Shown: positions 1 through 15,150 of the stretch, piece by piece | Layout of the letters: every line of letters starts with the position of its first letter | How positions within the stretch are numbered: position 1 is the stretch's first letter | Assembly (NCBI GenBank): GCA_030549845.1 | Contig: JAUQQN010000003.1 | Location: forward strand, 1-17,030 | DNA: 17,030 nucleotides | Origin: Patescibacteria group bacterium | GTDB taxonomy: Bacteria; Patescibacteriota; Minisyncoccia; UBA6257; HR35 | Direction: 5' to 3' | Notes under the pieces: generated by a model | The model's database searches: none | What the model was told of the DNA's origin: nothing | What the model saw: the letters and a program-made list of their open reading frames with translations, nothing else | Made by a program: the position numbers and the translations under genes

Positions 1-2592
1 AAAGCTTGATGCTCCTAAATTATATGTATTATCAGAATAAGGAATAATATCTGAGTTTATATATCCTACAAAATTAATAGGAGTTGAGGTTGAAGCTCCT
101 AAAGTTGTAGAACCATATACATGTAATAAAGAAGTAGGTGTTGTAGTTCCTATTCCTATATTGCCATCATCTCTTACATATAATAATGGCTTATTAAGTG
201 AGTTTATTACTTTTAAAGAAAAAGTAGTATCACTGGAGCCAGCTCCCTTAATGAAAAGCTTAGTATTTGTATCTCTAAGAGGAACACCCCCAATCGAAAC
301 AGAACCATAATTATAGCCTGATAACCGCATTACTTCCACTTGAGGGCCATTATATCTCCATAACATGAATCTCATACTAACATATCTTGGCCCATAATCT
401 TCTGCTATAAACTGAATGCTTGCATCTGGAATTGTGGATCCATCACTAAATCTTCCTAAAAAATCTATTCCTGGTGGGTTAGCATTAGTATTGTGTAAAG
501 ACTTTAAAACTAAAGCTGTTCTTTGAACATTTCCTTCAACGGGCATCAGTAGTTCCAAGCTTGGCGTTGAAGTGTTTGAGCTTTTTATTGTAGTTGGAAT
601 GAGAAACCAAGATTTTCCACTACTTGATATTTTATTAATATAGGCAGTAGTAACCGTAGGAACAGTACCAGCAGTGGCTCCAGTTGAGGTAGTATAAGTA
701 TAAGAGGTAGCAGTTGTTGTAAAGTAATGATTTTGAGCATTAGAAGTGGTACCAGCATATAATCTATATTTAGCTGCGCCAATTACCGGTGACCAAGAGA
801 TAATAATAGCTTCACCTGCAGCTATGGTTATCGATACTTCTTGAGAACCAATTGTTGTACCTCCAGCTTCATCCTCTGCTACTACTTTAAAGTAATATGT
901 ACCAGACGGCAATGTCCCTCCAGTAGTTGTGGCAACAGTTACATTGGTAGGAGGTGGCATTTCAATAGCAAAATTCGAACCAGCAGAAATTGTTAATTTC
1001 TCTTGGGGTGCTATTGTTCCTATACCCACGTTACTGTTTAAATATAAACCTGACCCCCCCGCTTGAATCTCAAAGAATCTGCTTGTTTGTAGTTTAAAAT
1101 GAGAACCTCCAATGTCATGTCTTCCTAATTCTAGTGTACCAGCATAACTCCTGGATTCTAAATACAATCTTGGACTTTGACCAGAAAAGGATCCACTAAT
1201 CCCTCCCCACCCTCCTAAAAAAGCTCTATGATTACTATCTCCATAATAGAACCCGCCCGTAAATCCACCAACTGTTGATAGAGGAATATAAATTGTGCCA
1301 AATATTTCAGAAGAAGCAGGGGTAACGGTTAATTTTGCATTAGGATTAGTCATTCCGATGCCTACTCTTCCACTTTGGTCAATTGTAAGTACTGCTGTTG
1401 AGGGGAAGGTGGAAGTGGTAATTTTAAATTTGTTTGAATCTGAAATATCTACTCCTATTGTATATTGAGTAGAAGGAGTAATTCCTGTTCTAAATTGAAT
1501 TTGAGGAGAATATGTTGTTGAAGTTGCAGAAGTTATTGTAAGAATTGGTGATATATTTGTTGAATAGAGTTCTAATAAAGAAGTGGGTGTTGTTGTTCCT
1601 ATTCCTAATCTTTTATTATTATTATCCCAATAAAGATTAGAATTATCTTGAGAGATTAAACCATTATTTCCTGCAAATAATATAGAACCAGGAGTTAAGG
1701 AAGATAAGGCTAAGTTAGCAAATGTTGGTGAAGAGGTAGTTGAGATATCTTGTGGGGTAGATAGTATAATATTTGAACCTACAGAGGATATATTTATTTG
1801 ATTTGGTGTTCCTTGTAAAGTTAAAGCTCCTGTTAAAGAATTTAAGGATAATACTCCTGTATTAGATATTGTTGCTGTAGATGTTCCTGTTATTGATATT
1901 CCTGGGCCTGGTATAAGTAATGAAGTAATATCTTTATATTCTAAGCTTGTTCCTGTATTATTAACTCCTAATATTTGATTAGCTAAACCTAATGTATTAA
2001 GTCCTGTACCTCCTGAAGTTATAGAAAGAGGTGTTAAAAGTACAAGAGAATTAGCTGTTATACCTCCTGTAGCTAATATATTTCCTTGTACTGTAAGTTT
2101 TTCTGAAGGTGTTGTTGTTCCTATAGCTACTGAGTCTGTAATTGTTTGTAATCTAACTACATTTCCATCATCTGTCCAACCTCCTGCTGTAGATAATGTT
2201 ACATCTGCCCATTGAAGATTGCCATTACCTATATATTGTAGGAATTGATTAGGATTAGGAGGATTTGAAGGCCAAATATAAGATATTCCATTAAAAGTTG
2301 TAGTATTTGTTACTATTAATTCTCCTAATATTTTTACTGTTCCTGTATTAAAAGAAAGAAGATTATTATTAAGTTCTACTATTGTTGTAGTAGATATATA
2401 TGTAGGTAAAGGAGGAGATACTGTACAATTAGGATCACCTGGAGAGCAAGAAGGATCTAAGGTTTCTCCTGGTCTATAAGGAGAAATAGGGGGTGAGGAA
2501 TATACTAAGGAGTAGATAAAGAGGAAGATAGTTAAAAATAAGAAGAAAATTCCTATATTTTTGTTAATTTTTACTTTTACATTATTAGGCAT
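1..2592 (-). CDS. Giant secreted tail-fibre-like repeat protein, N-terminal 864 aa; the 3' end runs off the left edge of the window
   Basis: I translated the minus strand line by line. ATG at 2592..2590 is followed by 864 sense codons with no stop down to base 1. It is absent from the ORF track, presumably because there is no in-window stop. N-terminus MPNNVKVKINKNIGIFFLFLTIFLFIYSLVYS looks like a signal peptide or anchor, followed by PGETLDPSCSPGDPNCTV. An SGGTGLNTLG motif is present. There are five G/AIGT-type copies followed by a K/L-L-x-V-like motif: VAIGTTTPSEKLTV, LGIGTTTPTSLLEL, VGIGMTNPNAKLTV, VGIGTIAPQEKLTI, IGIGTTTPTSLLHV. One FN3-like segment is present (PPPTNVTV...ISWSPVIGAAKYRLYAG). 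The visible end is PYSDNTYNLGASSF. Confidence 0.85.
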   Translation of the reverse strand, partial: MPNNVKVKINKNIGIFFLFLTIFLFIYSLVYSSPPISPYRPGETLDPSCSPGDPNCTVSPPLPTYISTTTIVELNNNLLSFNTGTVKILGELIVTNTTTFNGISYIWPSNPPNPNQFLQYIGNGNLQWADVTLSTAGGWTDDGNVVRLQTITDSVAIGTTTPSEKLTVQGNILATGGITANSLVLLTPLSITSGGTGLNTLGLANQILGVNNTGTSLEYKDITSLLIPGPGISITGTSTATISNTGVLSLNSLTGALTLQGTPNQINISSVGSNIILSTPQDISTTSSPTFANLALSSLTPGSILFAGNNGLISQDNSNLYWDNNNKRLGIGTTTPTSLLELYSTNISPILTITSATSTTYSPQIQFRTGITPSTQYTIGVDISDSNKFKITTSTFPSTAVLTIDQSGRVGIGMTNPNAKLTVTPASSEIFGTIYIPLSTVGGFTGGFYYGDSNHRAFLGGWGGISGSFSGQSPRLYLESRSYAGTLELGRHDIGGSHFKLQTSRFFEIQAGGSGLYLNSNVGIGTIAPQEKLTISAGSNFAIEMPPPTNVTVATTTGGTLPSGTYYFKVVAEDEAGGTTIGSQEVSITIAAGEAIIISWSPVIGAAKYRLYAGTTSNAQNHYFTTTATSYTYTTSTGATAGTVPTVTTAYINKISSSGKSWFLIPTTIKSSNTSTPSLELLMPVEGNVQRTALVLKSLHNTNANPPGIDFLGRFSDGSTIPDASIQFIAEDYGPRYVSMRFMLWRYNGPQVEVMRLSGYNYGSVSIGGVPLRDTNTKLFIKGAGSSDTTFSLKVINSLNKPLLYVRDDGNIGIGTTTPTSLLHVYGSTTLGASTSTPINFVGYINSDIIPYSDNTYNLGASSF
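1054..1060. repeat. C7 (G7 on the coding strand) homopolymer inside the tail-fibre-like CDS
   Basis: Plus strand tgaCCCCCCCgc; coding strand CAA GCG GGG GGG TCA (QAGGS). This is one of only two G/C runs of 7 that I saw in the window. Confidence 0.9.
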
Positions 2593-2603
2593 TATTTAAA
2601 TTA

Positions 2604-3140: not shown

Positions 3141-5159
3141 TTACCTAATAATAGCTCCAAATTTGTCTTGTAATCTTTTAATAATTTGACTCATCAGTAT
3201 ATCAACTTCTTCATCTTTCAAAGTTCTGTCACTTCTTCGAAATATAAGATGATAGGCTAAGCTTTTTTCATTTTCTTTAAGTGGAGGACCTTGATAGATA
3301 TCAAATAACTCGATATCTTCTAGAAGGTCTTTTGCAACTTCGTAAATCTCATTTTCTATCTGATCTGATTGAATATATTCAGCGACAATAAGAGAAAGGT
3401 CTCTTATTATTGCAGGATAAGTTGGTATTTCTTTAAATAGCTTTTCTTTTTCAAAATAATTTATAAGTTTTGTTAAATTAATTTCAGCTACAAAAACAGG
3501 TTGTTTGATTTCGTATTTTTTCATAATATCTTCACTTAAGTATCCCCAAAAACCTATAAAGTCTTCTTCCTCAGTATGAATTGCACTTAAAAGTTTGAAA
3601 GAGTTTGTATTTTGAGTAAATGGTTTATAGTGAAATTTTTTAAGACCCAATATTTCAGCTAGATAATTTAATATTCCTTTTCCTAAAGCTAATAAATTTT
3701 GAAGGTTTTCCCGAGTTATAGCAATACCTAAATGTATATCTTCCATTATTTTATTTTTTTGAATTACAGCAACATCTCCTATTTCAAAAATTTCTATTTC
3801 TTTTGTCCTCAACCAATTGTAATAATTCAAGTTTTTAGAAATTGCTTTAACTAAATTTATAAACACAAAAGGTCGATAGTATTTAAATAAATTACTAACA
3901 GGGTTTAAAATCTCTATTATTTCTCCTCTTTGTCTAATAATCTCTTCAAAACTTACAAGATCTTCGTCATCTATAAAACTATAAGTTATAACTTCATCTA
4001 AGCCAGCAGAGGTTAAATTTTTTCTTAAAAAGTCTTCAAATTTTAAAACTTTGTTTTCTTTTCCTATTTTAAAAACAGAAGGAAAACTTTCTTTTACTTT
4101 TTTATATCCAATAAATCTTGCAATTTCTTCTATTAGATCAACATCCGTTTTAAGATCTAATCTTTCAATAGGTGGAGTTATATAAACATAATCTTTTGAT
4201 TTCTTCATAATCTTTGCGCCCAATCTTTTGAGTAAATTTGTTATCTCTTTGTCGCTTATTTTTTCTCCAACATAGTTATTTAATTTTTCAAACTTCAAAA
4301 GAATATTATCGGGTTTTTGGATTTTATTAAGTTGAAAGATTCCTTTTGCTGGTTTTCCTTTGCAATATTTTTGTATCAGATATGTTAAGTATTCTAGAGA
4401 TTTTAATGAGTTAATTTCGGATACTTTTCTTTCAAATCTATAACTAGCTTCTGTTTGCAAATTAAGAGCTCTAGATGTTTTGTAAATTGTAGATGGATCA
4501 AAAATTGCTGCTTCTATCAATATATTTTTTGTATTTAAATCAACTTCTGCAGACTTTGCTCCTTGGATTCCAGCCAATGCTAAGATTTTTTTCTTATCTG
4601 TAATTAATATACAACCTTTTGGAAGAGTATAATAAACATCTTTTAATGAGTGAAATACTTCTTTTTCTTTTGATTCTCTAACTATAATTTCTTTTTCAAC
4701 TTTATCTAAATCAAAGACATGAAGAGGTGCACCATATTTTATCATTACATAATTACTTAAATCAACTATTAAATTTATTGAATTTAAGCCATAGCTTTCT
4801 ACAAATTCCTTAAGCCAATTTGGAGATTCTGAATTTTTTACATCTAATATAACTCTTGCAAAATAATTTAAGCATAAATGAGTTCTTGATGATATTTTTA
4901 TAAAGTTTTCAATTTTTTTAGATATTTCTTTGATTTTAAACTTTTCATCCTTTATTTTATATCCTGTAATCAAAGATATTTCTTTTGCTAATCCATAAAT
5001 ATTACCTGCATCAGAAAACCTATTTGGCAAAATATCAACATCTAAATATCCATCTTCATATAAAGTTTCAAAAGATTTCTCAGTTAATTCTTGTGCAACT
5101 TTTTTCCAATCTATTTTTTTATTGAAAAATTCTTGTAAGTCTTTTGTTCTAAACCTCAT
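3141..5159 (-). CDS. pheT: Phenylalanine--tRNA ligase beta subunit (short form, 672 aa)
   Basis: B3_4-type motifs: SPNWLKEFVESYGLNSINLIVDLSNYVMIKYGAPLHVFDLDKV. B5-like segment: LLKFEKLNNYVGEKISDKEITNLLKRLG. C-terminal FDX-ACB-like segment: YPAIIRDLSLIV...SLAYHLIFRRSDRTLKDEEV. It lies immediately downstream of pheS with a 2-nt gap. Confidence 0.95.
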   Translation of the reverse strand: MRFRTKDLQEFFNKKIDWKKVAQELTEKSFETLYEDGYLDVDILPNRFSDAGNIYGLAKEISLITGYKIKDEKFKIKEISKKIENFIKISSRTHLCLNYFARVILDVKNSESPNWLKEFVESYGLNSINLIVDLSNYVMIKYGAPLHVFDLDKVEKEIIVRESKEKEVFHSLKDVYYTLPKGCILITDKKKILALAGIQGAKSAEVDLNTKNILIEAAIFDPSTIYKTSRALNLQTEASYRFERKVSEINSLKSLEYLTYLIQKYCKGKPAKGIFQLNKIQKPDNILLKFEKLNNYVGEKISDKEITNLLKRLGAKIMKKSKDYVYITPPIERLDLKTDVDLIEEIARFIGYKKVKESFPSVFKIGKENKVLKFEDFLRKNLTSAGLDEVITYSFIDDEDLVSFEEIIRQRGEIIEILNPVSNLFKYYRPFVFINLVKAISKNLNYYNWLRTKEIEIFEIGDVAVIQKNKIMEDIHLGIAITRENLQNLLALGKGILNYLAEILGLKKFHYKPFTQNTNSFKLLSAIHTEEEDFIGFWGYLSEDIMKKYEIKQPVFVAEINLTKLINYFEKEKLFKEIPTYPAIIRDLSLIVAEYIQSDQIENEIYEVAKDLLEDIELFDIYQGPPLKENEKSLAYHLIFRRSDRTLKDEEVDILMSQIIKRLQDKFGAIIR

Positions 5160-5161
5160 TT

Positions 5162-6181
5162 TTAAAATTGTTTAATAAATCTTAAATCTCCTGAGTTAAA
5201 TAATCTAACATCATTTATATTATGCCTTAACATAATTATTCTTTCAATTCCTAAACCAAATGCATAACCAAAGTATTTATTTGTATCAATTCCTGCTTCT
5301 TTCAAAACAAACGGGTGTATCATTCCTGCTCCTGCTATTTCTAGATACCCAGAATTTTTACAGACATTACATCCTTTTCCTTTACATAGTACGCATTCCA
5401 AATCAATTTCTACGCTTGGTTCAGTGAAGGGAAAATATGAAGTTCTAAAAATCACTTCAAGTTCTGTGCCGAAAAATTCCTTGAAAAAAATCTTTAAAAC
5501 TCCTTTTAATTCTCTTAAATCAGCATGTTCACCAACGGCTAAACCTTCTAATTGATGAAATTGTATTTCATGTCTTTGATCAGTGGCTTCATGACGAAAG
5601 ACTTTTCCTGGAATTACAACTCTTATAGGTAGAGGCTTATTTTTTAGTACTTCAACTTGGTGGGCTGATGTGTGGGTTCGTAAAAGATATTTATTATTTT
5701 TATCTTCAAATTTTAACCAAAGTGTATCCCATAAATCCCTTGAAGGATGGTTAGGTGGAATGTTCAAAGAATCAAAGTTTTCATATTCTGTAACCAGTTC
5801 TCTACCTCTTTCTATATCAAAACCTAATTTCATAAATATTTCTTTTATTTCTTTTATCGCTTGATTTAAGATGTGAATATGCCCTTTTCTTATTTTTTCT
5901 CCAGGATGATGAATGTCAAACTTAATTTCTTTTTTGCTGGTGATTATTCTTTCTTTTGCAACCTCATAAAGTTTTTCTATTTCATTTTTTACATAATTAA
6001 AATACTCTCCTAATTCTCTTCTTTCTTTTTCTTCTAATTTCACAATTTTATCTAAAATTTCTTTTAATAATCCTTTCCTTCCTAAAAATCGAATTCTAAA
6101 ATTTTCTAAACTATTTTCAGAATTAATTTCTTCAATAATTTTACGAGCTTCGTTCAAAATATTATCTAATTCCTCTTTCAT
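5162..6181 (-). CDS. pheS: Phenylalanine--tRNA ligase alpha subunit
   Basis: Class II aaRS motifs: FRHEATDQRHEIQFHQLEG (motif 2), YFPFTEPSVEID, and GYAFGLGIERIIMLRHNINDVRLF...DLRFIKQF (motif 3 and C-terminus). A Cys knuckle CVLCKGKGCNVCKNSGYLEIAGAGMIHP is present, as in many bacterial PheS. Confidence 0.97.
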   Translation of the reverse strand: MKEELDNILNEARKIIEEINSENSLENFRIRFLGRKGLLKEILDKIVKLEEKERRELGEYFNYVKNEIEKLYEVAKERIITSKKEIKFDIHHPGEKIRKGHIHILNQAIKEIKEIFMKLGFDIERGRELVTEYENFDSLNIPPNHPSRDLWDTLWLKFEDKNNKYLLRTHTSAHQVEVLKNKPLPIRVVIPGKVFRHEATDQRHEIQFHQLEGLAVGEHADLRELKGVLKIFFKEFFGTELEVIFRTSYFPFTEPSVEIDLECVLCKGKGCNVCKNSGYLEIAGAGMIHPFVLKEAGIDTNKYFGYAFGLGIERIIMLRHNINDVRLFNSGDLRFIKQF

Positions 6182-6182
6182 T

Positions 6183-7931
6183 TTATTTATTTCTTTTTTC
6201 TATCCTAATTTGTGAATCATAATATGAAATTCTATGTATACCGCCTATATAGATACCTGAAGAATCTACAGTTATTGCACTAGGGTAATCTTCTTGATCA
6301 GATGGATTTTCAATTTTATCCCATATTATATTTAAATTATCTTTCTGAATTTTTAATATTCTCCATTTCCTATCTCCGCCTTCAACTATAGAAGTTATAG
6401 TGTAAATATATTTATCAAAGACCCTAATTTTTCCTGATATATTATTTAAACTGCCTAATAAAGACAGGTTACTACTATTTCTTTTTTCTAATCTTTCACT
6501 TGTCATTACATAAATATTCCCACTATTATCTAAATCTAAGCTTACGAAGGGTTTGTTTGAGGTAGCATAGCTTATTAAGTTATTTAAATTATTTATATCT
6601 CTTTTTTCTAATCTTCCATATATTGACCCACAAGAAGGGTTATTCCAATTGAAATTCCCTACATAGCCTCCTATATATAAATAACTATCTTTCACAACAA
6701 TTTGTGGGTATATATCATAGTCAAAACAAAGACATGTATAACCCGAAGAGCAAGCAGCATAAGGAGTATGTGGATTTATTTGAATAGTTTGGACAGCTGT
6801 TAAATCACTTTTATTTAATTTAGTTATAACCCAATAATAATCTGACGTACCGCCTGCAGATGTATAAACTGTCCTTCTATTCCAGCCGGCTAGATATATA
6901 TAATTACTATCTTGAGCCATTGACCATACAGTTTCCATTGAAGAAATATTTACAGCGCTAACTAAGCTTCCATTTATTTTATCTCTCTTTTCAAGTCTAC
7001 CTGTAACTCCTGACCTCCCCTGCCTGCCCCCAATATAAATATAATCTCTATCTTCGATGACCCCTCCAAATACGCTATCAAAATCATAGGTATTATAATA
7101 AGGGTTTGGATCTGAAGTAGTAGACCATATTATCTCGCCATTTAGTTTTTTTCTTTTTTGAATTACCCATCGCCAATTATCATTTTCGTTTACTTTATTA
7201 TCACCTACTAAGTAAATATAATCATTATCTAAAGCGAGACCTTCGATATCATCCCATAGATTACCCCAATTTTCAGAAAAAGCCCACATTATTTCTCCTG
7301 AAGGTAAAAGTGCTAATTCAAAATCCATCGGAGCTAAGTTTTTATTATTACCAAATTCCAAAAGCCAATGTGCAGTTCCATTATCTTTTCCTGAAATACT
7401 ATCTATTCCTTTATTTTTTTCAGATTCTAAATTAGCTATTAATTCAAATTCTTTACCAGAAGTAGAAACAAAAAAAGCATAAAAATAATTTATATCATTA
7501 ATAGGATCAGTTGGTAGATTGTTTATTCTGAGAATAGGATTTTGAGAAAAATTAACTGGGATCCATCCTTCGCCATTTATATTTGAAGGGTCAGGAGAAC
7601 AATAATACTGATATCCTTGAGGAGGATCTGGTAAATCTGGGTAATCTACTTGACAATTAGTTGTTGCTGATTTAGAAGGTAATGATAAATATATGTAATT
7701 TGATCGTCCTAATGAAATCCTAGGGTCTTCAAGTAAAAAACTTTTCAAAATATTTTCAAGTTTAGAAAGGTTATTTACTCTTAAAAGGTCTCTTGATTCT
7801 TTTGAAAGCTTATCTTTTCTTAATAATTGTGTACTCAATCCTAATAAAGTTGTTACTAATATTAGAAAAATAACTACTTCTAAATAAGTGAACCCTCTTA
7901 AAATCTTCATCTTTTTAAAAAATTTTACCAA
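6183..7931 (-). CDS. Prepilin-type (type IV pilin/pseudopilin-like) protein fused to a roughly 7-bladed SBBP/NHL-like beta-propeller
   Basis: Class III signal motif MKILRG|FTYLEVVIFLILV with Glu at +5. The ORF-track start is a TTG at 7931; the ATG at 7910 gives the canonical short leader and is probably the true start. The pilin-like globular domain shares RVNNL..LE, GWIPVNF, LPTDPIN and GKEFELIANLE with the 12910..15150 protein. Seven repeats follow the pattern D.YIY(I/L).G ... (R/K)(L/I)EKR(D/N)..N(G/L)..(L/I) (GRLEKRDKINGSL, GRLEKRDINNLNNL, ERLEKRNSSNLSL, WVIQKRKKLNGEIIW, WRILKIQKDNLNIIW, ...). Confidence 0.85.
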   Translation of the reverse strand: MVKFFKKMKILRGFTYLEVVIFLILVTTLLGLSTQLLRKDKLSKESRDLLRVNNLSKLENILKSFLLEDPRISLGRSNYIYLSLPSKSATTNCQVDYPDLPDPPQGYQYYCSPDPSNINGEGWIPVNFSQNPILRINNLPTDPINDINYFYAFFVSTSGKEFELIANLESEKNKGIDSISGKDNGTAHWLLEFGNNKNLAPMDFELALLPSGEIMWAFSENWGNLWDDIEGLALDNDYIYLVGDNKVNENDNWRWVIQKRKKLNGEIIWSTTSDPNPYYNTYDFDSVFGGVIEDRDYIYIGGRQGRSGVTGRLEKRDKINGSLVSAVNISSMETVWSMAQDSNYIYLAGWNRRTVYTSAGGTSDYYWVITKLNKSDLTAVQTIQINPHTPYAACSSGYTCLCFDYDIYPQIVVKDSYLYIGGYVGNFNWNNPSCGSIYGRLEKRDINNLNNLISYATSNKPFVSLDLDNSGNIYVMTSERLEKRNSSNLSLLGSLNNISGKIRVFDKYIYTITSIVEGGDRKWRILKIQKDNLNIIWDKIENPSDQEDYPSAITVDSSGIYIGGIHRISYYDSQIRIEKRNK

Positions 7932-7937
7932 AAAACA

Positions 7938-8525
7938 TTAAAGTTCTAAAGCTTCTTTTAATGTTTCTGGGTCAATAAATTCTATTTCACCTCCTGTTGG
8001 TATTCCTTTTTTGAGCCCTCTTATTTTAACATTGAATTTTTCAACAATTTTTATAACCTCTTTTTTTAATGGCTCTGCTTCTTTTGTAAATGGTAAAGCT
8101 AATATAACTTCTTTTATGTTTTTATCTTCCTCGAATCTTTTCTTTAATTTAATTAAATTTTCTTTCACATATTCTTTTTCTTCAAATGGAAGCAATAAAC
8201 CACCAATTACATAATAAACTCCGCGATATTTCTTTAAATTTTCAATTGTTATTAAATCTGTTTCTCTTGCTACAATACATAAAGTGCTTTTATTTCTTTT
8301 AGGATCTTTACAAATTTCACAAATTTCATCATTAATTATCGGGAAATTACAATATTTGCAAAAGTTTAAATTTTCTATTAAAGCTTTTAGAGATTCTAGA
8401 AATGTTTCTTTAAATTTCTTATCTTGCTTAACAAACCAAAAAAATAATCTCCAAGCTTGTCTTGGTCCTATTTCTGGAAAATTATCAAAAAATTGGATTA
8501 TTTTTTTAAATAAAGGTGGAAGCAT
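7938..8525 (-). CDS. recR: Recombination protein RecR
   Basis: HhH-like FPEIGPRQAWRLFFWF, a C4 zinc finger CKYC...CEIC, and a Toprim-like KEVILALPFTKEAEPLKKEV followed by GIPTGGEIEFIDPETLKEALE. Confidence 0.9.
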   Translation of the reverse strand: MLPPLFKKIIQFFDNFPEIGPRQAWRLFFWFVKQDKKFKETFLESLKALIENLNFCKYCNFPIINDEICEICKDPKRNKSTLCIVARETDLITIENLKKYRGVYYVIGGLLLPFEEKEYVKENLIKLKKRFEEDKNIKEVILALPFTKEAEPLKKEVIKIVEKFNVKIRGLKKGIPTGGEIEFIDPETLKEALEL

Positions 8526-8880
8526 ATTTAATTATATTTTTAAGAAAAATTGTTATAAAAATTGAAAGGCTAAAAATCACTGCTAATAAAACAAGAAGGC
8601 TTCCTAGGTCTTTTATTGCCTTTATTTTAGGATGATATTCTTCTGTTATAAGATTGCAAATTTCTTCTATTGAAGTATTTAAAGCCTCTGAAAAAAATAT
8701 TAAAATTACTGCTAAAATAACCAAAACTAATTCTATTGGCTGAAATCTAAAAATAATACTTAAAATTATTATCAAACCTCCTATAAGAATATTCAATCTA
8801 AAATGAAAATGCGTTCGATAAATATATAAAAATCCTTCATAAGCTTTTTTAAAGCTTTGAAAAATTGAATTATTTTTCAT
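8506..8880 (-). CDS. dgkA: DgkA-family integral membrane lipid kinase (diacylglycerol/undecaprenol kinase family)
   Basis: 124 aa with three hydrophobic segments. The signature SEALNTSIEEICNLITEEYHPKIKAIKDLGSLLVL is collinear with E. coli DgkA EILNSAIEAVVDRIGSEYHELSGRAKDMGSAAVL. Its 3' end overlaps the recR start by 20 nt. Confidence 0.85.
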   Translation of the reverse strand: MKNNSIFQSFKKAYEGFLYIYRTHFHFRLNILIGGLIIILSIIFRFQPIELVLVILAVILIFFSEALNTSIEEICNLITEEYHPKIKAIKDLGSLLVLLAVIFSLSIFITIFLKNIIKYASTFI

Positions 8881-9002: not shown

Positions 9003-10580
9003 ATGGATAACAAATCTTATCTAAATCACATAGTGGAAGTATTAATAGCCATAATTTTACTTTCCCTTGTTATAATCCTCCCCTCTCCCTCTTTCTCCCA
9101 AACATCATATAAAGCAAAAATAGCTAATTATCCTATAACTATAGAACTTAAAAAAGAAGATAATAACAAGATTATAGGAAGATATAAGTATGATAAGGTA
9201 GGAAAATGGCTAAAACTTGAAGGAAAAATTCCTACTTCTTCTAATAGAGTAATAATCAATGAATATGATGAAAATGATAAAAATACAGGATATTTTATAG
9301 GAATATTATCTAAGGATAAAACAAGCATTAAACTATTAAGTTGGATAGATAAAATAAATAAGAATAGAAGATTAAAAGTATATTCTCCTTTAATTAGGTT
9401 GTTAGAAGAAAAATCTTCTAAGATTAGAAAATATAAGTTAGGGGATTATGATCGGATTTATAATATTTATCTTTCTATCTCTGAGAAGTATTCTAATATT
9501 GGGGTAAAATATGGAAGAAAAGATAATAAATATTATATCCAAATAAATGATAAAACTTATGGGCCTTATGATTATGTTCAAGAATTAACTTTCTCCCCTG
9601 ATAGCTCTAAGTATGGATTTATGTATAAAAAAGAGAATGAATATTATATTAATGAATATTATATTCAAATCAATGATAAAACTTATGGGCCCTATGATGA
9701 TGCTTGGTGGTTAACTTTCTCTCCTGATAGCTCTAAGTATGGATTTATGTATAAAAAAGAGAATGAATATTATATTAATGAATATTATATTCAAATCAAT
9801 GATAAAACTTATGGACCTTATGATAATGCTTGGTTGTTAATTTTCTCTCCTGATAGTTCTAAGTATATGTTTGTGTATAAAAAAGATAATAAAGCTTACA
9901 TTCAAATCAATGATAAAACTTATGGGCCCTATGATAATGCTTGGTGGTTAACTTTCTCTCCTGATAGTTCTAAGTATGGATTTGTGTATGAAAAAGATAA
10001 CAAATATTATATTCAAATCAATGATAAAACTTATGGGCCCCATGATAATGCTTGGGAGTTAACTTTCTCTCCTGATAGTTCTAAGTATGGATTTGTGTAT
10101 GAAAAAGATAATAAAGCTTACATTCAAATCAATGATAAAACTTATGGACCTTATGATAATGCTTGTTGGTTAACTTTCTCCCCTGATAGCTCTAAGTATG
10201 GATTTTGGTATAAAAAAGATGATAAATATTACATTCAATTAAATGATAAAACTTATGGACCTTATGATGATGCTTGGTGGTTAACTTTCTCTCCTGATAG
10301 CTCTAAGTATGGATTTATGTATAAAAAAGATGATAAATATTACATTCAATTAAATGATAAAACTTATGGGCCTTATGATTATGCTTGGTGGTTAACTTTC
10401 TCTCCTGATAGTTCTAAGTATGGATTTATGTATAAAAAAGGTAATAAAGAATATATTCAAATAAATGACAAAACCTATGGGCCTTATGATAAAGAAGCAA
10501 CTTTTACTTTTACAAAAGACAATAGAACATTTATAGGATATGTTAAGGGTAAAGATTTAATTATTGAAGAAATAGAATAA
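9003..10580 (+). CDS. Signal-anchored tandem-repeat protein with nine PD40-like (FSPD-motif, TolB-type beta-propeller-like) repeats
   Basis: N-terminal hydrophobic segment IVEVLIAIILLSLVIILPSPSFSQ. Eight near-identical units YYIQINDKTYGPYD.AWWLTFSPDSSKYGF.YKKDNK are followed by one degenerate unit. The F-S-P-D-(S/G)-x-K-x-x-F spacing and the 37-aa period resemble PD40 repeats. Confidence 0.85.
   Translation: MDNKSYLNHIVEVLIAIILLSLVIILPSPSFSQTSYKAKIANYPITIELKKEDNNKIIGRYKYDKVGKWLKLEGKIPTSSNRVIINEYDENDKNTGYFIGILSKDKTSIKLLSWIDKINKNRRLKVYSPLIRLLEEKSSKIRKYKLGDYDRIYNIYLSISEKYSNIGVKYGRKDNKYYIQINDKTYGPYDYVQELTFSPDSSKYGFMYKKENEYYINEYYIQINDKTYGPYDDAWWLTFSPDSSKYGFMYKKENEYYINEYYIQINDKTYGPYDNAWLLIFSPDSSKYMFVYKKDNKAYIQINDKTYGPYDNAWWLTFSPDSSKYGFVYEKDNKYYIQINDKTYGPHDNAWELTFSPDSSKYGFVYEKDNKAYIQINDKTYGPYDNACWLTFSPDSSKYGFWYKKDDKYYIQLNDKTYGPYDDAWWLTFSPDSSKYGFMYKKDDKYYIQLNDKTYGPYDYAWWLTFSPDSSKYGFMYKKGNKEYIQINDKTYGPYDKEATFTFTKDNRTFIGYVKGKDLIIEEIE
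9531..10577 (+). repeat. In-frame tandem DNA repeat array: 2 x 126 bp, 6 x 111 bp, plus one degenerate terminal unit
   Basis: Unit starts are 9531, 9657, 9783, 9894, 10005, 10116, 10227, 10338 and 10449. Units share long identical stretches such as caatgataaaacttatgg and ttaactttctctcctgatag.tctaagtatggattt. Confidence 0.9.
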
Positions 10581-11011: not shown

Positions 11012-12586
11012 ATGAAAATAATAATAGTTGAATCTCCTAAAAAGGCTAAAACTATAAAAAAATTTTTAAAAAACAGAAGGATTTTGGTTATTTCTTCAAA
11101 AGGACATATTGTAGATTTACCCAAAAATAAATTTGGAATATATATAGAGGAAGGCGGAAAGTTAAAGGTTGAATATGTACTATTAAAATCTTTTTTCTTA
11201 AACTACTTAAAAAAATTGAAAAACAATATAAATGAATTTATTTTAGCCACAGATCCTGACAGAGAAGGTGAATTTATTGCATGGAGTATTGTAGAGTTTT
11301 TAAAGTTAAAAAATTACTCAAGAATTAGATTTTATGAAATATCAAAAAATGCGATATTGAATGCTTTGCAAAATAAAGAATCCATTAATTTAAATTTAGT
11401 AAAAGCCCAAAAAGCTAGAAGGTTTTTAGATAGAATTATAGGTTATACATTATCACCAATTTTATGGAAAGAAAAAATAGGTGAATCTGCAGGTAGAGTA
11501 CAATCTTCGGCGTTAAGAATTATAGTTGAAAAAGAAGAAGAGATAAAAAAATTTAAGGAAGAGAAATTTTATAAACTAGAAGTTGATTTTGGTAGTTTTA
11601 AGGCTTATTATGTCGAAAATAAAAATGACAAATTTAAAGATAAGGATTATTTAGAGAAAATTAAAAAAGGGATAAAGGGAAAAGAATTTATTTTAAATAA
11701 AATTGAAATAAAACAACAACCAATTAAAAAGCCCACTCCATTAGATACAGCGCTGCTTCAAAGGGTTAGTTACTTAAAATATAAATTTTCGGCTCCTTTA
11801 ACTATGAAAATTGCTCAATCATTATATGAAAAGGGTTTTATTACCTATCATAGAACAGATTCTTTTAATTTATCTAAAGAATTTCTAGAAAAAATCAAAG
11901 GCATTCTTGGAGAATATTATGAAAGACCCTATATTAAAAAATCTGAATTTTCACAAGAGGCTCATGAAGCTATTAGGCCAGTATATATTAAAAGAGATGT
12001 AAATTTAAAAGATATTGAAAAGAAATTGTACGAGTTGATCTTTGATTTTACCTTAGCAAGTTGTAGTAAAGATGGTTTATTAGAAAAAATTGTTTTTATA
12101 TTGAATCCTTTATCAAGCAAAAATCTTTTATTCAAAGCAGAAGGAGAAAAATTAATATTCGATGGATTTTTAAAATTTTATCCTTTTAAGATTTCTTTTA
12201 AAGAATTGCCTAATTTAGAAAGGGGTACTATATTAAAAGCTAAAAATATAAAAATCTTAGAAGTCAGAACCAAGCCTCCTTCAAGATATTCTGAAGCTAC
12301 ACTAATAAAGAAATTAAAGGAATTAGGAATAGGTAGGCCTTCTACTTATGCTGAAATTATCAAAACTTTACTAAAACGGAAATATATAATCAAAGAAAAA
12401 GGTTATTTAAAACCAACTGAGAAAGGAGTAAGGGTAATAGAATTTTTAAAAAGTCACTTTAAAGATATAATTGACTTAAATTTTACTGCAAAAATGGAAA
12501 AAAATTTAGATGAAATTGCAAAAGGGCTAAGAGATTATGAGAAATTTGTAATAGACTTTTGGAAATTTTTAAAAAGTTTATTATAA
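11012..12586 (+). CDS. topA: DNA topoisomerase I (type IA), core-only 524-aa form
   Basis: Toprim motifs IIIVESPKKAKTIKKFL and LATDPDREGEFIAWSI. The active-site region is SLYEKGFITYHRTDS. RPSTYAEIIKTLLKRKYI and NFTAKMEKNLDEIA match the end of the E. coli core domains. The protein stops directly after these motifs. Confidence 0.93.
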   Translation: MKIIIVESPKKAKTIKKFLKNRRILVISSKGHIVDLPKNKFGIYIEEGGKLKVEYVLLKSFFLNYLKKLKNNINEFILATDPDREGEFIAWSIVEFLKLKNYSRIRFYEISKNAILNALQNKESINLNLVKAQKARRFLDRIIGYTLSPILWKEKIGESAGRVQSSALRIIVEKEEEIKKFKEEKFYKLEVDFGSFKAYYVENKNDKFKDKDYLEKIKKGIKGKEFILNKIEIKQQPIKKPTPLDTALLQRVSYLKYKFSAPLTMKIAQSLYEKGFITYHRTDSFNLSKEFLEKIKGILGEYYERPYIKKSEFSQEAHEAIRPVYIKRDVNLKDIEKKLYELIFDFTLASCSKDGLLEKIVFILNPLSSKNLLFKAEGEKLIFDGFLKFYPFKISFKELPNLERGTILKAKNIKILEVRTKPPSRYSEATLIKKLKELGIGRPSTYAEIIKTLLKRKYIIKEKGYLKPTEKGVRVIEFLKSHFKDIIDLNFTAKMEKNLDEIAKGLRDYEKFVIDFWKFLKSLL

Positions 12587-12596
12587 TTAAATCATT

Positions 12597-12941
12597 ATGG
12601 TAAGAGTAAAAAGAGGAAAAATAAAAACAAAGAAAAGAAAAAAGTTGTTAAGATTAGCTAAGGGTTATAAATGGGGTAGAAAAAGTAAAGAGAAGTTTGC
12701 TAAAGAAGCTATTTTGCATGCATTTAAACATGCCTATGAAGGAAGAAAAAAGAAAAAAAGAGATTTTAGAAGATTATGGCAAATTAGGTTGAATGCATTT
12801 TTGAGAGAAAGAGGATTAAAGTATTCTACTTTTATAAAAAAACTAAAAGATAATAACATAAAGTTAAATAGAAAAATTTTAGCTGAGCTTTCTATGAATT
12901 ATCCTACAATTATGGAAGAAATCGTAAATTCTGTAAAATAG
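12597..12941 (+). CDS. rplT: 50S ribosomal protein L20
   Basis: MVRVKRGKIKTKKRKKLLRLAKGYKWGRKS...AYEGRKKKKRDFRRLWQIRLNA...LKYSTFIKKLKDNNIKLNRKILAEL is the characteristic L20 sequence. It starts 10 nt after the topA stop codon. Confidence 0.95.
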   Translation: MVRVKRGKIKTKKRKKLLRLAKGYKWGRKSKEKFAKEAILHAFKHAYEGRKKKKRDFRRLWQIRLNAFLRERGLKYSTFIKKLKDNNIKLNRKILAELSMNYPTIMEEIVNSVK

Positions 12942-15150
12942 GTTGTAATATTTTGAAAATATTTGAAAAGTTATTTAGTTGATATGGTAATGATAAACAG
13001 TTAGGGCAGTTTCCATTTTCATCTATTTTCATAATAAAACCTCCTTTGCTAAAGTTATATCCTGCGATTATTAAATCTTTATCTATTGCATTTATTATTT
13101 TGTTAAGAAAACTAGAGGGATATAGTTTATAAGTAGACAATTTTGCAGAAGATATAGATAATATTCCTTGATTATTATATTTACCTACTCCATAGAAACT
13201 GTTTTTATAATTAGCAAAAGATCTTATTTCTAAATTACAAAAACTTTCACAAATAGGTATAAAGTTATACATTTCATTATTTAAAATTTCAAAGCTATCT
13301 GGTTTTATTTTTATTACTCTATAATATAAATTATTATTTTCTTTAAATTTCACTAAAATATAATAACTATTTTCTATCTCTGAAGGTAGAATAGAAAGAG
13401 CTTCAGCATTTGATATCGTTAAACAATTTAATACATCACCACTATCATCAATTTTCCCTACCCATCCTTCAGCTAAGGTTTGTCCGACTAGAAGATAAAA
13501 AACATTCGATCCTTCTTGAAAGATTTTAATATCATTAAGTTTCTGGGGCGAATAACAGATACTGGATGAGGTTGAAACTCGATAATTAAAAATTTGGCCT
13601 GTTGAAGAACTGATTTTAAAAACATAAGCTGAACTTGTGGTCTCTCCTACTCCGATGTAATTACCATCACTTGTTCTTTCTAAAGATTTAATCGAAGAAT
13701 AATTTTCTAAAGTAGATGTGGAAATCCATTTTATTGATCCTGTAGAAGAAATTTTTACTGCTAAGGCGGTATTTTCATAAAAACCCCCAAAAATATAATG
13801 ATCAACATATTTATCTCCATTTTCATCTACTGGTAATACAGAAATAAATATACTTGTTGTTACATTCTGTAGGTTAATAGTAGAAGATAAAAGAACATTA
13901 CCAAATACATCAATTTTTGCCCACCATGGAAGTGTAGTTGTAGAATTAATCTTTTTGCCTCCTGCTACGATATAATATTTTTCAAATTTTTCATCAGAGA
14001 TTTTAACATCATAAGGATAAGTATCTAAACCAAAAAACCGTATCCAAGGTTCTGTATTAAAAGGACAACCATAGGCTTCCATTTCACAAACATGAGCATT
14101 TGATCCCCAACCTACAGCCCATGCATTTGTTATATCATTAATAGAAGTAGTTGTGAAATCATAACATTCTCTATATGGGCTTTCAATCCCTGATGTCCAT
14201 GTGGCATTTTTATAATATTTAATATATGGAGCATTCCCTTGTGCGCTAAAGGATGAATATACTTTTAGATAAGAAAGAAAGTAAGGCCTACTGAATTTAT
14301 GTGCTACATAATAAGTAAGAATTGATAATGAAGTGGAAGTGGACCCATCATGAACAGCTGTAGTATCAGTAGGGATAACTTCATTATTATTATCGAACAA
14401 AAGCCATTGGCCTTCAGTAATTTTTATAGGATTCAAACAAGAAAAACTAGCACCATTTGGGTAACTAGGAAATTTTAGTATCGGAGCTTGCTTACAGGTT
14501 GTAGTAGTTATTTCACCATATAATCTATTTCCAACTATTAAACATTTATTGGTCCCAGCCTCATAAATTTCATTATCACTTCCTCCATCTTTTGAAGTTT
14601 TATCTTGTTTTCCTCCATATTTGTTTTCTGAATATTCTAAGTTTGCATTTAATTCAAATTCCTTTGTGCCTCTTGAAAATGCATAAGTATAAAAAAATCC
14701 TGAAGAGTAAGAGTTGATTGGATCAATAGGTAAATAAGTTATTGGCGATGTTTTTAGCTCAGTAAAATTTATGGGGATCCAACCTAAGCCATTTATTTCT
14801 CTTAACAAAGTAGATGAAGAATTCTGAATAATATTCCAAGTTTTACCATTAGCATCTGTAATTGTTGTTGAAGGAATGGGTTCTTTATCATAAGGAATAG
14901 ATACAAAAATTGAAGGAAATGCTTCGTCATAACCTGTAGAATTGTAATTACCATCTAAATCAGCATAAGGGTTTGTTAAAAGATAAGCATTAATTGCAAG
15001 CTCAAGATTTTTAAGATCATTTACCCTTTGAAAGTCTCTATTTCTTTTAAAAAGCTCTATAGGATTAAGAAAATAAAAAAGAATACCCAGAACTGATATT
15101 ATAGCGGTTAATACTATTAAAATTTCAATTAAAGTAAAACCGCTTTTCAT
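12910..15150 (-). CDS. Prepilin-type protein with a pilin-like globular domain, a discoidin/jelly-roll-like middle domain and a roughly 7-bladed SBBP/NHL-like beta-propeller (746 aa)
   Basis: Leader MKSG|FTLIEILIVLTAI with Glu at +5. RVNDLKNLE, GWIPINF, LPIDPIN and TKEFELNANLE are collinear with the 6183..7931 protein. The middle segment ends ...HVCEMEAYGC, which resembles an F5/8 type C domain end. Blade-like repeats include YYIVAGG...WWAKIDVFGNVL, HYIFGGF...LAVKISSTGSIKW, NYIGVGE...YVFKISSSTGQI, YLLVGQT...WVGKIDDSGDVL and LIIAGYN...GFIMKIDENGNC. Confidence 0.85.
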   Translation of the reverse strand: MKSGFTLIEILIVLTAIISVLGILFYFLNPIELFKRNRDFQRVNDLKNLELAINAYLLTNPYADLDGNYNSTGYDEAFPSIFVSIPYDKEPIPSTTITDANGKTWNIIQNSSSTLLREINGLGWIPINFTELKTSPITYLPIDPINSYSSGFFYTYAFSRGTKEFELNANLEYSENKYGGKQDKTSKDGGSDNEIYEAGTNKCLIVGNRLYGEITTTTCKQAPILKFPSYPNGASFSCLNPIKITEGQWLLFDNNNEVIPTDTTAVHDGSTSTSLSILTYYVAHKFSRPYFLSYLKVYSSFSAQGNAPYIKYYKNATWTSGIESPYRECYDFTTTSINDITNAWAVGWGSNAHVCEMEAYGCPFNTEPWIRFFGLDTYPYDVKISDEKFEKYYIVAGGKKINSTTTLPWWAKIDVFGNVLLSSTINLQNVTTSIFISVLPVDENGDKYVDHYIFGGFYENTALAVKISSTGSIKWISTSTLENYSSIKSLERTSDGNYIGVGETTSSAYVFKISSSTGQIFNYRVSTSSSICYSPQKLNDIKIFQEGSNVFYLLVGQTLAEGWVGKIDDSGDVLNCLTISNAEALSILPSEIENSYYILVKFKENNNLYYRVIKIKPDSFEILNNEMYNFIPICESFCNLEIRSFANYKNSFYGVGKYNNQGILSISSAKLSTYKLYPSSFLNKIINAIDKDLIIAGYNFSKGGFIMKIDENGNCPNCLSLPYQLNNFSNIFKILQPILQNLRFLP

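Follow-up and report, generated by a model that had tools for sequence, protein, structure and literature searches.

The window analysed here, a 17-kb stretch (positions 1 to 17,030 of contig JAUQQN010000003.1, from a Patescibacteria group bacterium), is AT-rich, with a G+C content of approximately 22–38%, and carries on its minus strand, between recR and pheS, a gene whose product joins a prepilin leader, a pilin head, and a predicted seven-bladed β-propeller in one polypeptide. The open reading frame (ORF) of 575–582 aa that a first-pass annotation, made from the letters of the DNA, had placed on the minus strand at 6183..7931 is present in the ORF list. The features of this gene and its product, referred to below as the target, are as follows:

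6183–7910, minus strand: coding sequence of the modular prepilin, running from an ATG at 7910 to a stop codon at 6183–6185 (575 aa)
7931, minus strand: alternative TTG start, giving an ORF of 6183–7931 and 582 aa
7893–7910, minus strand: class III (prepilin) leader MKILRG, aa 1–6, read from the sequence, with a predicted prepilin-peptidase cut after Gly6
7728–7892, minus strand: mature N terminus and α1 helix, aa 7–61, with a hydrophobic α1N and an amphipathic α1C
7296–7727, minus strand: globular pilin head, aa 62–205, with five β strands and a short linker helix at 195–200
6186–7295, minus strand: seven-bladed β-propeller cargo, aa 206–575, 42 kDa, isoelectric point (pI) 5.3

The ATG at 7910 is preferred as the start over the TTG at 7931, because the 6-residue basic leader that it gives resembles the 5–8-residue leaders of the orthologues in length and charge, because the gene callers on two independent assemblies give the 575-aa product, because P0001, the cluster representative with 98% identity, has the same length, and because this start leaves 27 nt to the recR stop. 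The identical gene is found in the runs SRR21619495 and SRR21619497. With the ATG start, the N terminus reads MKILRG|FTYLEVVIFLILVTTLLGL, and the part after the predicted cut starts with FTYLE, with Gly at −1, Phe at +1, and Glu at +5. A prepilin site is recognized by a short basic leader that ends in Gly (rarely Ala or Ser) at −1 and is followed by a hydrophobic +1 residue and by Glu+5, and all of these are present in the target. In the orthologues, position −1 is occupied by G, S, or A, and Glu+5 (E11) is invariant in the orthologue set A5 as well as in the head-family sets A6 and A7. In both AlphaFold2 models, of the full-length protein and of the head only, the α1 helix spans residues 9–61 (53 residues), with a kink at residues 30–31 in the full-length model, and it has the length (about 50 residues) and the hydrophobic N-terminal half of the long α1 helix of type IV pilins. 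Simultaneously, α1C contains a conserved RD..R motif (R40, D41, and R44), in which D41 and R44 are invariant in A5–A7. Both the site MKILRG|FTYLE with Glu+5 and the hydrophobic helix had been read in the sequence by the first-pass annotation, and both hold.

The globular head follows α1 directly, and its five strands are situated at residues 72–78, 101–105, 144–149, 154–160, and 183–187 in the full-length model. The head-only model (mean predicted local distance difference test, pLDDT, 95.0; predicted template modelling score, pTM, 0.86) has a helix-plus-sheet 'lollipop' shape with five strands past the helix, and the pilin-like globular domain that had been proposed earlier is supported by AlphaFold2 and by the sequence profile as a domain of approximately 180–200 aa. 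Its conserved features include the Cys86/Cys104 pair and the motifs vYxSLP, dGxGWiPvnF, and LPxDPxN; invariant or almost so in A3, A6, and A7 are R40/D41/R44, C86/C104, GxGWxP (G113, G115, W116, P118), and LPxDPxN (L132, P133, D135, P136, N138). When the head profile (A6) was compared with the PDB sequences, every match to E 0.13 was a type IV pilin or a pseudopilin, among them geopilin (E 9.5e-7, positions 3–64), the Thermus PilA 6xxd (1.9e-5, positions 7–97), and the GspG 5wda (5.7e-5, positions 7–87). Furthermore, position 7 (Phe) of A6 is aligned to residue 1 of the mature 6xxd PilA, 5wda GspG, and 8pfb PilE1. A phmmer search with the full-length target against the PDB sequences gave only chance matches (E > 0.3). 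The head is a pilin by its sequence profile and its general shape, yet a distinct head type; pilin heads are very diverse.

Behind the short linker helix, the C-terminal part of the target contains seven repeats of the form D.YIYxxG...(W)R(I/L)EKRd..nG.l, starting at aa 231, 290, 337, 410, ~467, 501, and ~556. The full-length AlphaFold2 model, calculated from a 66-row alignment of window sequences and proteins of the homologue search, has a mean pLDDT of 87.3 and a pTM of 0.79. In this model, 28 propeller strands fall into seven groups of four by our own grouping of the DSSP strands, as expected for a predicted seven-bladed propeller fold. The elements of the propeller are as follows:

7272–7292, minus strand: first propeller strand, aa 207–213 (SGEIMWA), upstream of blade 1
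7113–7253, minus strand: blade 1, aa 220–266, DNDYIYLVG...WRWVIQKRKKLNGEIIW; strands 220–227, 231–241, 245–254, 260–266
6945–7064, minus strand: blade 2, aa 283–322, DRDYIYIGG...GRLEKRDKINGSLV; strands 283–286, 290–297, 303–310, 316–322
6777–6932, minus strand: blade 3, aa 327–378, DSNYIYLAG...YWVITKLNKSDLTAV; strands 327–333, 337–348, 355–366, 372–378
6705–6776, minus strand: Cys-rich insertion between blades 3 and 4, aa 379–402, with C387, C393, and C395
6558–6704, minus strand: blade 4, aa 403–451, KDSYLYIGG...YGRLEKRDINNLNNLIS; strands 403–407, 410–416, 432–438, 445–451
6444–6548, minus strand: blade 5 (the shortest), aa 455–489, DNSGNIYVMTSERLEKRNSSNLSLL; strands 455–460, 465–470, 473–478, 484–489
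6309–6431, minus strand: blade 6, aa 494–534, FDKYIYTIT...KWRILKIQKDNLNIIW; strands 494–498, 501–510, 513–522, 528–534
6192–6290, minus strand: blade 7, aa 541–573, DSSGIYIGG...SQIRIEKRNK; three strands 541–548, 553–562, 565–573

The strand at 207–213 appears in the model to complete blade 7 as its fourth strand, forming a 'velcro' closure of the ring, since it lies ahead of blade 1, and the C-terminal blade contributes just three strands of its own. At this strand, the closest orthologues share a conserved PSGExxW sequence. Between blades 3 and 4, the Cys-rich insertion is predicted with low confidence (pLDDT 56–59 for residues 381–400), and C427, the partner of the insertion cysteines, sits in blade 4. 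The insertion is present in the target, P0001–P0004, and P0130 and absent from P0131, P0132, P0040, and P0137; it is restricted to the clade of the target, and the more distant head-plus-propeller proteins are without it. This loop may determine specificity. The propeller is acidic, with a pI of 5.3 in the target and 4.3–5.5 in eight orthologues.

A Foldseek search of the full model against the PDB gave β-propellers only: CylK (E 6.5e-13), BamB, the seven-bladed YncE with a target-normalised TM-score of 0.71–0.75, and then WD40 proteins. These matches span many unrelated functions and hence indicate nothing specific about the function of the target. The repeat listing, AlphaFold2, and Foldseek agree that the seven repeats noticed by the first-pass annotation make up a complete seven-bladed propeller, and a model without a propeller, which that annotation had named as the outcome that would speak against its reading, was not obtained.

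The propeller itself matches no Pfam or NCBIfam repeat model even at E ≤ 1. The propeller-only profile (A2) gathers 131 homologues, with the signature 'YIYxxG...WRIEKRD', from Nitrospiria, Spirochaetes, Bacteroidota, Actinobacteria, WOR-3, Planctomycetota, and others. Many proteins of this family carry type IX secretion system (T9SS) sorting tails, FN3, cadherin-like, or Big domains, and the propeller is therefore an extracellular module; 175 of the 187 propeller-matching proteins are without a pilin N terminus. The label 'SBBP/NHL-like', which the first-pass annotation had attached to the repeats, did not survive as a family assignment. Membership in SBBP (PF06739), NHL (PF01436), or delta-60 is rejected because the curated models give no match at E ≤ 1. 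An hhalign comparison of the propeller with P0005, which bears a propeller of the SBBP/delta-60 type, reaches a probability of 38%, and the SBBP proteins that the propeller profile retrieves are among its weakest matches (E 1e-13 to 1e-15 over 8–15% of the query). The label describes, at best, a remote resemblance. SBBP, delta-60 (TIGR02608/DUF5122), and NHL propellers share with the target blades of approximately 40–60 residues, a 'D..g.IYvaG' strand, and their occurrence in secreted or surface proteins, whereas the W-R-I-E-K-R-D strand is a hallmark of the family of the target.

The precomputed 'RIP' (PF00161), DDE transposase, and similar labels on propeller homologues rest on short, recurring matches, in none of which a single stretch is significant, and were rejected as repeat artefacts. 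A few of the members in P0013–P0129 have a precomputed PF27111 label, and some sources misname members as 'formylmethanofuran dehydrogenase subunit C'.

The head, in turn, belongs to a large family of its own. An exhaustive search with the full-length target among 1.84 billion representative proteins gave 2,007 relatives at E ≤ 1e-3, which are split into those that match residues ~5–220 only and those that match the propeller only. With the head profile, at least 2,056 proteins were retrieved from a collection of 5.8 billion, many of them stand-alone forms of approximately 190–210 aa, and the source names given to head-family proteins are prepilin-type N-terminal cleavage/methylation or type II secretion system (T2SS) proteins of Paceibacterota. 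In a scan of one genome per species, 328 relatives were found, nearly all in Patescibacteria assemblies, and several single assemblies have three or four copies each among the listed loci. The motif G/A/S|[FILVMYW][TSA]xxE is present in 88 of 98 head-matching proteins.

The same head carries a variety of cargos. Laminin_G_3 (PF13385, a ConA-like lectin) was found in 49 of 99 scanned head-family proteins, a sample that is biased to propeller fusions because the query was the full-length protein, and the other cargos comprise RCC1 (two members), Kelch, LVIVD, DUF5122, PQQ_2, FGE-sulfatase, DUF2341, and Peptidase_S74. In P0005, the cargo is the SBBP/delta-60-type propeller mentioned above. A second member of the head family lies within the window, 5 kb from the target:

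12910–15150, minus strand: paralogous modular prepilin, 746 aa, MKSG|FTLIE, same head family, other cargo

The head of the target (its first 200 residues) matches this second prepilin with a BLASTP E of 4e-23. The paralogue passes TIGR02532 with a score of 17.3 against a cutoff of 16.3, and its unannotated cargo of approximately 540 aa gives no match to the propeller hidden Markov model (HMM). The genome therefore contains several cargo variants on one carrier.

In relatives, head-family genes adjoin those of the pilus machine. In the locus L027 (6318–17865), six head-family genes in a row, three modular (261–389 aa) and three stand-alone (183–199 aa), are situated directly upstream of a PilB gene (T2SSE + MshEN, E 5e-124), and the stand-alone genes abut pilB. 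In L069 (5238–20561), head-family genes of 195, 1263, and 344 aa are followed by a pilB–pilC (T2SSF) cluster and then by more prepilins, and in L075 (88–4694) and L081 (7963–10507), head-family genes are located within 1 kb of pilB. Given this arrangement, the stand-alone form may be a shaft pilin and the fused forms accessory pilins. The head is a lineage-specific type IV pilin module, one that acts as an ordinary subunit in some proteins and as a carrier in others.

The fusion of this head with this propeller is conserved. Full-length orthologues with 43–47% identity retain every element, and among 274 fetched proteins, a prepilin N terminus and this propeller are combined in 12, 11 of which use this head family. 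In the remaining protein, P0012, the propeller family is fused to an unrelated GspG-like pilin module, a second carrier. The gene order DAGK-recR-X-pheS-pheT, where DAGK is the diacylglycerol kinase gene and X is the fusion, is kept in three genomes. The pilin–propeller fusion is real and selected, and the target has the arrangement of a modular pilin, with the head at aa 1–205, the linker helix at 195–200, the propeller at 206–575, and both modules also occurring apart.

The genes around the target and farther along the window are as follows:

3141–5159, minus strand: pheT
5162–6181, minus strand: pheS
7938–8525, minus strand: recR
8506–8880, minus strand: DAGK gene
11012–12586, plus strand: topA
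12597–12941, plus strand: rplT

Five tRNA genes also lie in the window, and the housekeeping genes are densely packed. The reading frames of pheS and pheT are intact, so the standard genetic code applies. Among the fetched genomes, the closest housekeeping matches of the window are Paceibacteria (Parcubacteria) assemblies: pheT shows 70% identity to that of a 'Candidatus Pacebacteria' assembly, and topA 65% identity to 'Candidatus Paceibacter' KUB_Bin06 and to one assembly labelled Saccharibacteria, which places the organism among the ultrasmall Patescibacteria. The target gene is separated by 27 nt from the recR stop (counted from the ATG at 7910) and by 1 nt from pheS, and these two gaps are the sole basis on which co-transcription with recR and pheST may be proposed. 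A scan for promoters and terminators round the target gene gave 18 sites against 19.4 expected from shuffled sequence, that is, no better than chance.

In two genomes, ComEC (PF03772 Competence + Lactamase_B) is encoded 3–5 kb upstream of the orthologue (L001 5297–7346; L084 894–2943). Between ComEC and the orthologue lie recR and the genes for a DNA glycosylase and for diacylglycerol kinase. The counterpart of the ComEC region in the window is occupied by a gene on the other strand (9003–10580, plus strand), which encodes a 525-aa protein with a hydrophobic N terminus and units of 'YIQINDKTYGPYDxAWWLTFSPDSSKYGF'. Its tandem repeat at 9776–10492 comprises 6.5 copies of 111 nt with 90% DNA identity, which points to a recent expansion; weak partial matches to the NCBIfam model TmcD_fam are all that it gives.

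At the right end of the window, the start of the 746-aa pilin overlaps by 4 nt the end of an ORF at 15150–17030 (minus strand), which encodes four FN3 domains and runs past the window end. The order FN3 protein–pilin–rplT–topA is found again in L009 and partly in L010, L012, and L071. By this order, L009 is an orthologue of the 746-aa pilin, and it was rejected as a full-length relative of the target. Since a head-family pilin of 1,263 aa in L069 carries FN3 and Big domains, the FN3 protein may likewise be a giant pilin, one that begins beyond the window. At the left end, an open frame of at least 865 aa (1–2595, minus strand, with a start near 2590) continues past the window; it has a signal-peptide-like N terminus (MPNNVKVKINKNIGIFFLFLTIFLFIYSLVYS) and no Pfam match, and its product is probably a large secreted or surface protein.

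Modular pilins are defined by an N-terminal pilin module that a short linker connects to at least one further module of no specific relation to pilus biology (Raynaud et al. 2021, PMC8179133). The target shares with them the class III signal, the pilin module, the short linker, and a bulky module unrelated to pilus biogenesis. In the case of Streptococcus sanguinis, PilB combines the pilin with a vWA domain and PilC with a ConA-like lectin, both adhesive modules; large modular pilins have been shown experimentally to be incorporated into pili, modular pilins have been proposed to be tip-displayed minor pilins that mediate adhesion, and forms with peptidase modules have been noted (PMC8179133). 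They are very common in the phyla of the candidate phyla radiation (CPR), with the PF13385 lectin as the leading cargo and representatives in Magasanikbacteria, Falkowbacteria, Wolfebacteria, Gracilibacteria, Saccharibacteria, and Parcubacteria (PMC8179133). The commonest cargo in the head family of the target, PF13385, is thus also the commonest architecture of that survey (PMC8179133). The survey was based on InterPro and could not detect the propeller of the target, because no Pfam model matches it. There are also differences: the head of the target comprises about 200 aa and is specific to Patescibacteria, whereas the pilins of Raynaud et al. are small (~100–140 aa), and the target is known here from its sequence and its predicted structure.

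A close counterpart by description is PilX2 of TM7x (Saccharibacteria, Nanosynbacter lyticus), a minor pilin of the thin T4P-2 with a C-terminal seven-bladed RCC1 propeller, whose deletion halves host binding while the filaments persist, and which has been proposed to be a tip adhesin (PMC11623550). The statement of the first-pass annotation that no characterized example of the architecture was known is hence outdated, since this propeller-bearing pilin is needed for host binding (PMC11623550). Both proteins belong to the same superphylum, are pilin-like, and end in a seven-bladed propeller. Compared with the target, which has a canonical G|FxxxE site and a gene between recR and pheS, PilX2 has no predicted PilD site (PMC11623550), an RCC1 propeller, and a gene within a type IV pilus (T4P) locus. 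The target matches neither RCC1 (PF00415) nor RCC1_2 and does not belong to the RCC1-propeller pilins.

PilY1/PilC of Pseudomonas, Neisseria, and Myxococcus also place a propeller at the pilus tip, function in adhesion, and are modular with variable partner domains (PMC8179133). However, PilY1/PilC lacks a class III signal and is no pilin; a complex of minor pilins keeps it at the tip via its C-terminal propeller (IPR008707), whereas the propeller of the target is a cargo joined covalently to the pilin. The two resemble each other in function only, and the target, which gives no PilC/PilY1 Pfam match, falls outside that family. CofB of enterotoxigenic Escherichia coli (ETEC), ComZ of Thermus, and GspK of the T2SS likewise combine a pilin N terminus with extra domains at the filament tip (PMC8179133), but these domains are a β-repeat with a β-sandwich, a β-solenoid, or an inserted α domain, and none is a propeller.

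The target is best explained as a filament-displayed modular type IV pilin of a Paceibacteria-like member of the Patescibacteria, to which we assign a probability of roughly 0.7. It would most likely be a minor or tip pilin that presents a ligand-binding propeller, although the tip position and the adhesive role are held with less confidence than display on a filament. The precursor would enter the membrane via its class III signal, and a PilD-type prepilin peptidase would cut past Gly6 and methylate Phe1. α1N, with Glu5, would then dock the subunit at the base of a growing filament through a PilB/PilC machine encoded elsewhere in the genome. Rather than forming the shaft as a repeated subunit, the target would most likely be a minor pilin of low abundance, located at the pilus tip or close to it; a sparse or tip position is favoured because a 42-kDa propeller hangs on a 22-kDa head, an argument of the kind made for modular pilins (PMC8179133). 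In this position, the acidic propeller would be displayed as a ligand-binding module, probably for a glycan or a protein on the surface of the host cells that these epibionts require. The canonical site, the invariant Glu+5, and a head profile that matches only pilins and pseudopilins to E 0.13 argue for a filament-displayed pilin, as do the N_methyl and motif matches within the head family, the AlphaFold2 models, the conserved fusion, the extracellular nature of the propeller family elsewhere, the head-family genes beside pilB/pilC in relatives, the interchangeable cargos on one carrier, the two carriers for one propeller, and the precedents of S. sanguinis PilB/PilC (PMC8179133) and TM7x PilX2 (PMC11623550).

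Several results weigh against this explanation. The target itself matches neither Pfam N_methyl (PF07963), the model with which the first-pass annotation had proposed to check it, nor TIGR02532 even at E ≤ 1; however, 65 of the 99 scanned head-family proteins match N_methyl at E ≤ 1e-3. The Foldseek search of the head-only model against the PDB gave no significant match, the best being the Thermus pilin 4bhr at E 2.1. In addition, the 17-kb window contains no pilB, pilC, pilD, or any other pilus assembly gene, and the 10 kb around the target orthologues in three genomes are likewise free of pilus assembly and prepilin peptidase genes. The target is surrounded by housekeeping genes, and its tie to a pilus machine in its own genome is therefore an assumption. 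Finally, propellers can be enzymes, and the top Foldseek match, CylK, is an alkylating enzyme.

Some of these results would also fit a membrane-anchored surface protein that never polymerises, in which the class III signal and the helix, cleaved or not, would only export or tether the propeller. Archaeal sugar-binding proteins with prepilin-like signals (the 'bindosome') resemble such a protein. The place of the gene within the DAGK-recR-X-pheS-pheT string, where it is set 27 nt and 1 nt from its neighbours and, in three genomes, more than 10 kb from any pilus gene, is in its favour, together with scores below the curated prepilin HMM thresholds and the poor fit of a 65-kDa subunit into a filament shaft. 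However, α1, Glu+5, and RD..R are conserved in the target as in the members beside pilB/pilC, including stand-alone ones of approximately 190 aa, and to our knowledge Glu+5 has no role in simple anchoring. Since modular pilins have, moreover, been found incorporated into pili (PMC8179133), a mere anchor is considered unlikely. A catalytic propeller displayed on a pilus or on the surface, for example a hydrolase or a lyase acting on the host envelope, is suggested by CylK, by tetrathionate hydrolase and neuraminidase, which are also listed among the Foldseek matches, by the enzyme-like FGE-sulfatase and Peptidase_S74 on the same carrier, and by the pilins with peptidase modules (PMC8179133). 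Nevertheless, no catalytic family model matches the target, its conserved residues are the framework Y/G/W/E-K-R of every blade and not a unique active-site set, and the commonest cargo of the head family is a lectin-type domain, which makes an enzyme improbable.

CPR bacteria are thought to depend on scavenged nucleotides, and the target could accordingly be imagined as a DNA-receptor pilin of a competence (Com-type) pilus, whose propeller would catch DNA for uptake by ComEC, like ComZ of Thermus. ComEC 3–5 kb upstream of the orthologues in two genomes, the adjacent recR, and YncE, which is among the best structural matches and was crystallised with DNA (3vh0), are consistent with such a receptor. 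The propeller, however, is acidic in all orthologues, which disfavours general DNA binding; the Foldseek matches are functionally diverse; ComEC is separated from the target by unrelated genes; and E-K-R occurs once per blade in many non-pilin surface proteins, which suggests a structural role for these residues. A DNA receptor is thus regarded as the most improbable of these explanations. A pilin displayed on a filament remains the preferred explanation of the target.

Going beyond the single protein, it is tempting, though on balance doubtful, to regard the Paceibacteria pilin carrier of approximately 200 aa as a cassette system, in which interchangeable lectins, at least five kinds of propeller, and enzyme-like domains, with several paralogues per genome, would form a cargo repertoire that sets the recognized hosts. 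The pilin with the WRIEKR propeller would then be a core, vertically inherited, and constitutively expressed host-receptor device, which fits its fixed place in the DAGK-recR-X-pheS-pheT order across genomes that are only 43–45% identical in the target protein.

A large share of bacterial diversity belongs to the Patescibacteria, which seemingly live attached to other cells. Their host recognition is understood mainly in a few cultured Saccharibacteria, in which type IV pili and a propeller-bearing pilin matter (PMC11623550). Modular pilins as a class are already known, the target falls under their definition, and the concept is unchanged by it; what is new is a cargo family that no searched model detects, a head family that serves as a multi-cargo carrier, and a conserved address among housekeeping genes. 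Domain-based censuses of modular pilins miss architectures whose cargo is without a model. In the target, the uncultured Paceibacteria offer a clean, canonical case of a complete propeller attached covalently to a prepilin, and the carrier head family of at least 2,000 members, the widespread surface propeller, and the conserved address are targets for expression, ligand screening, and host-range prediction.

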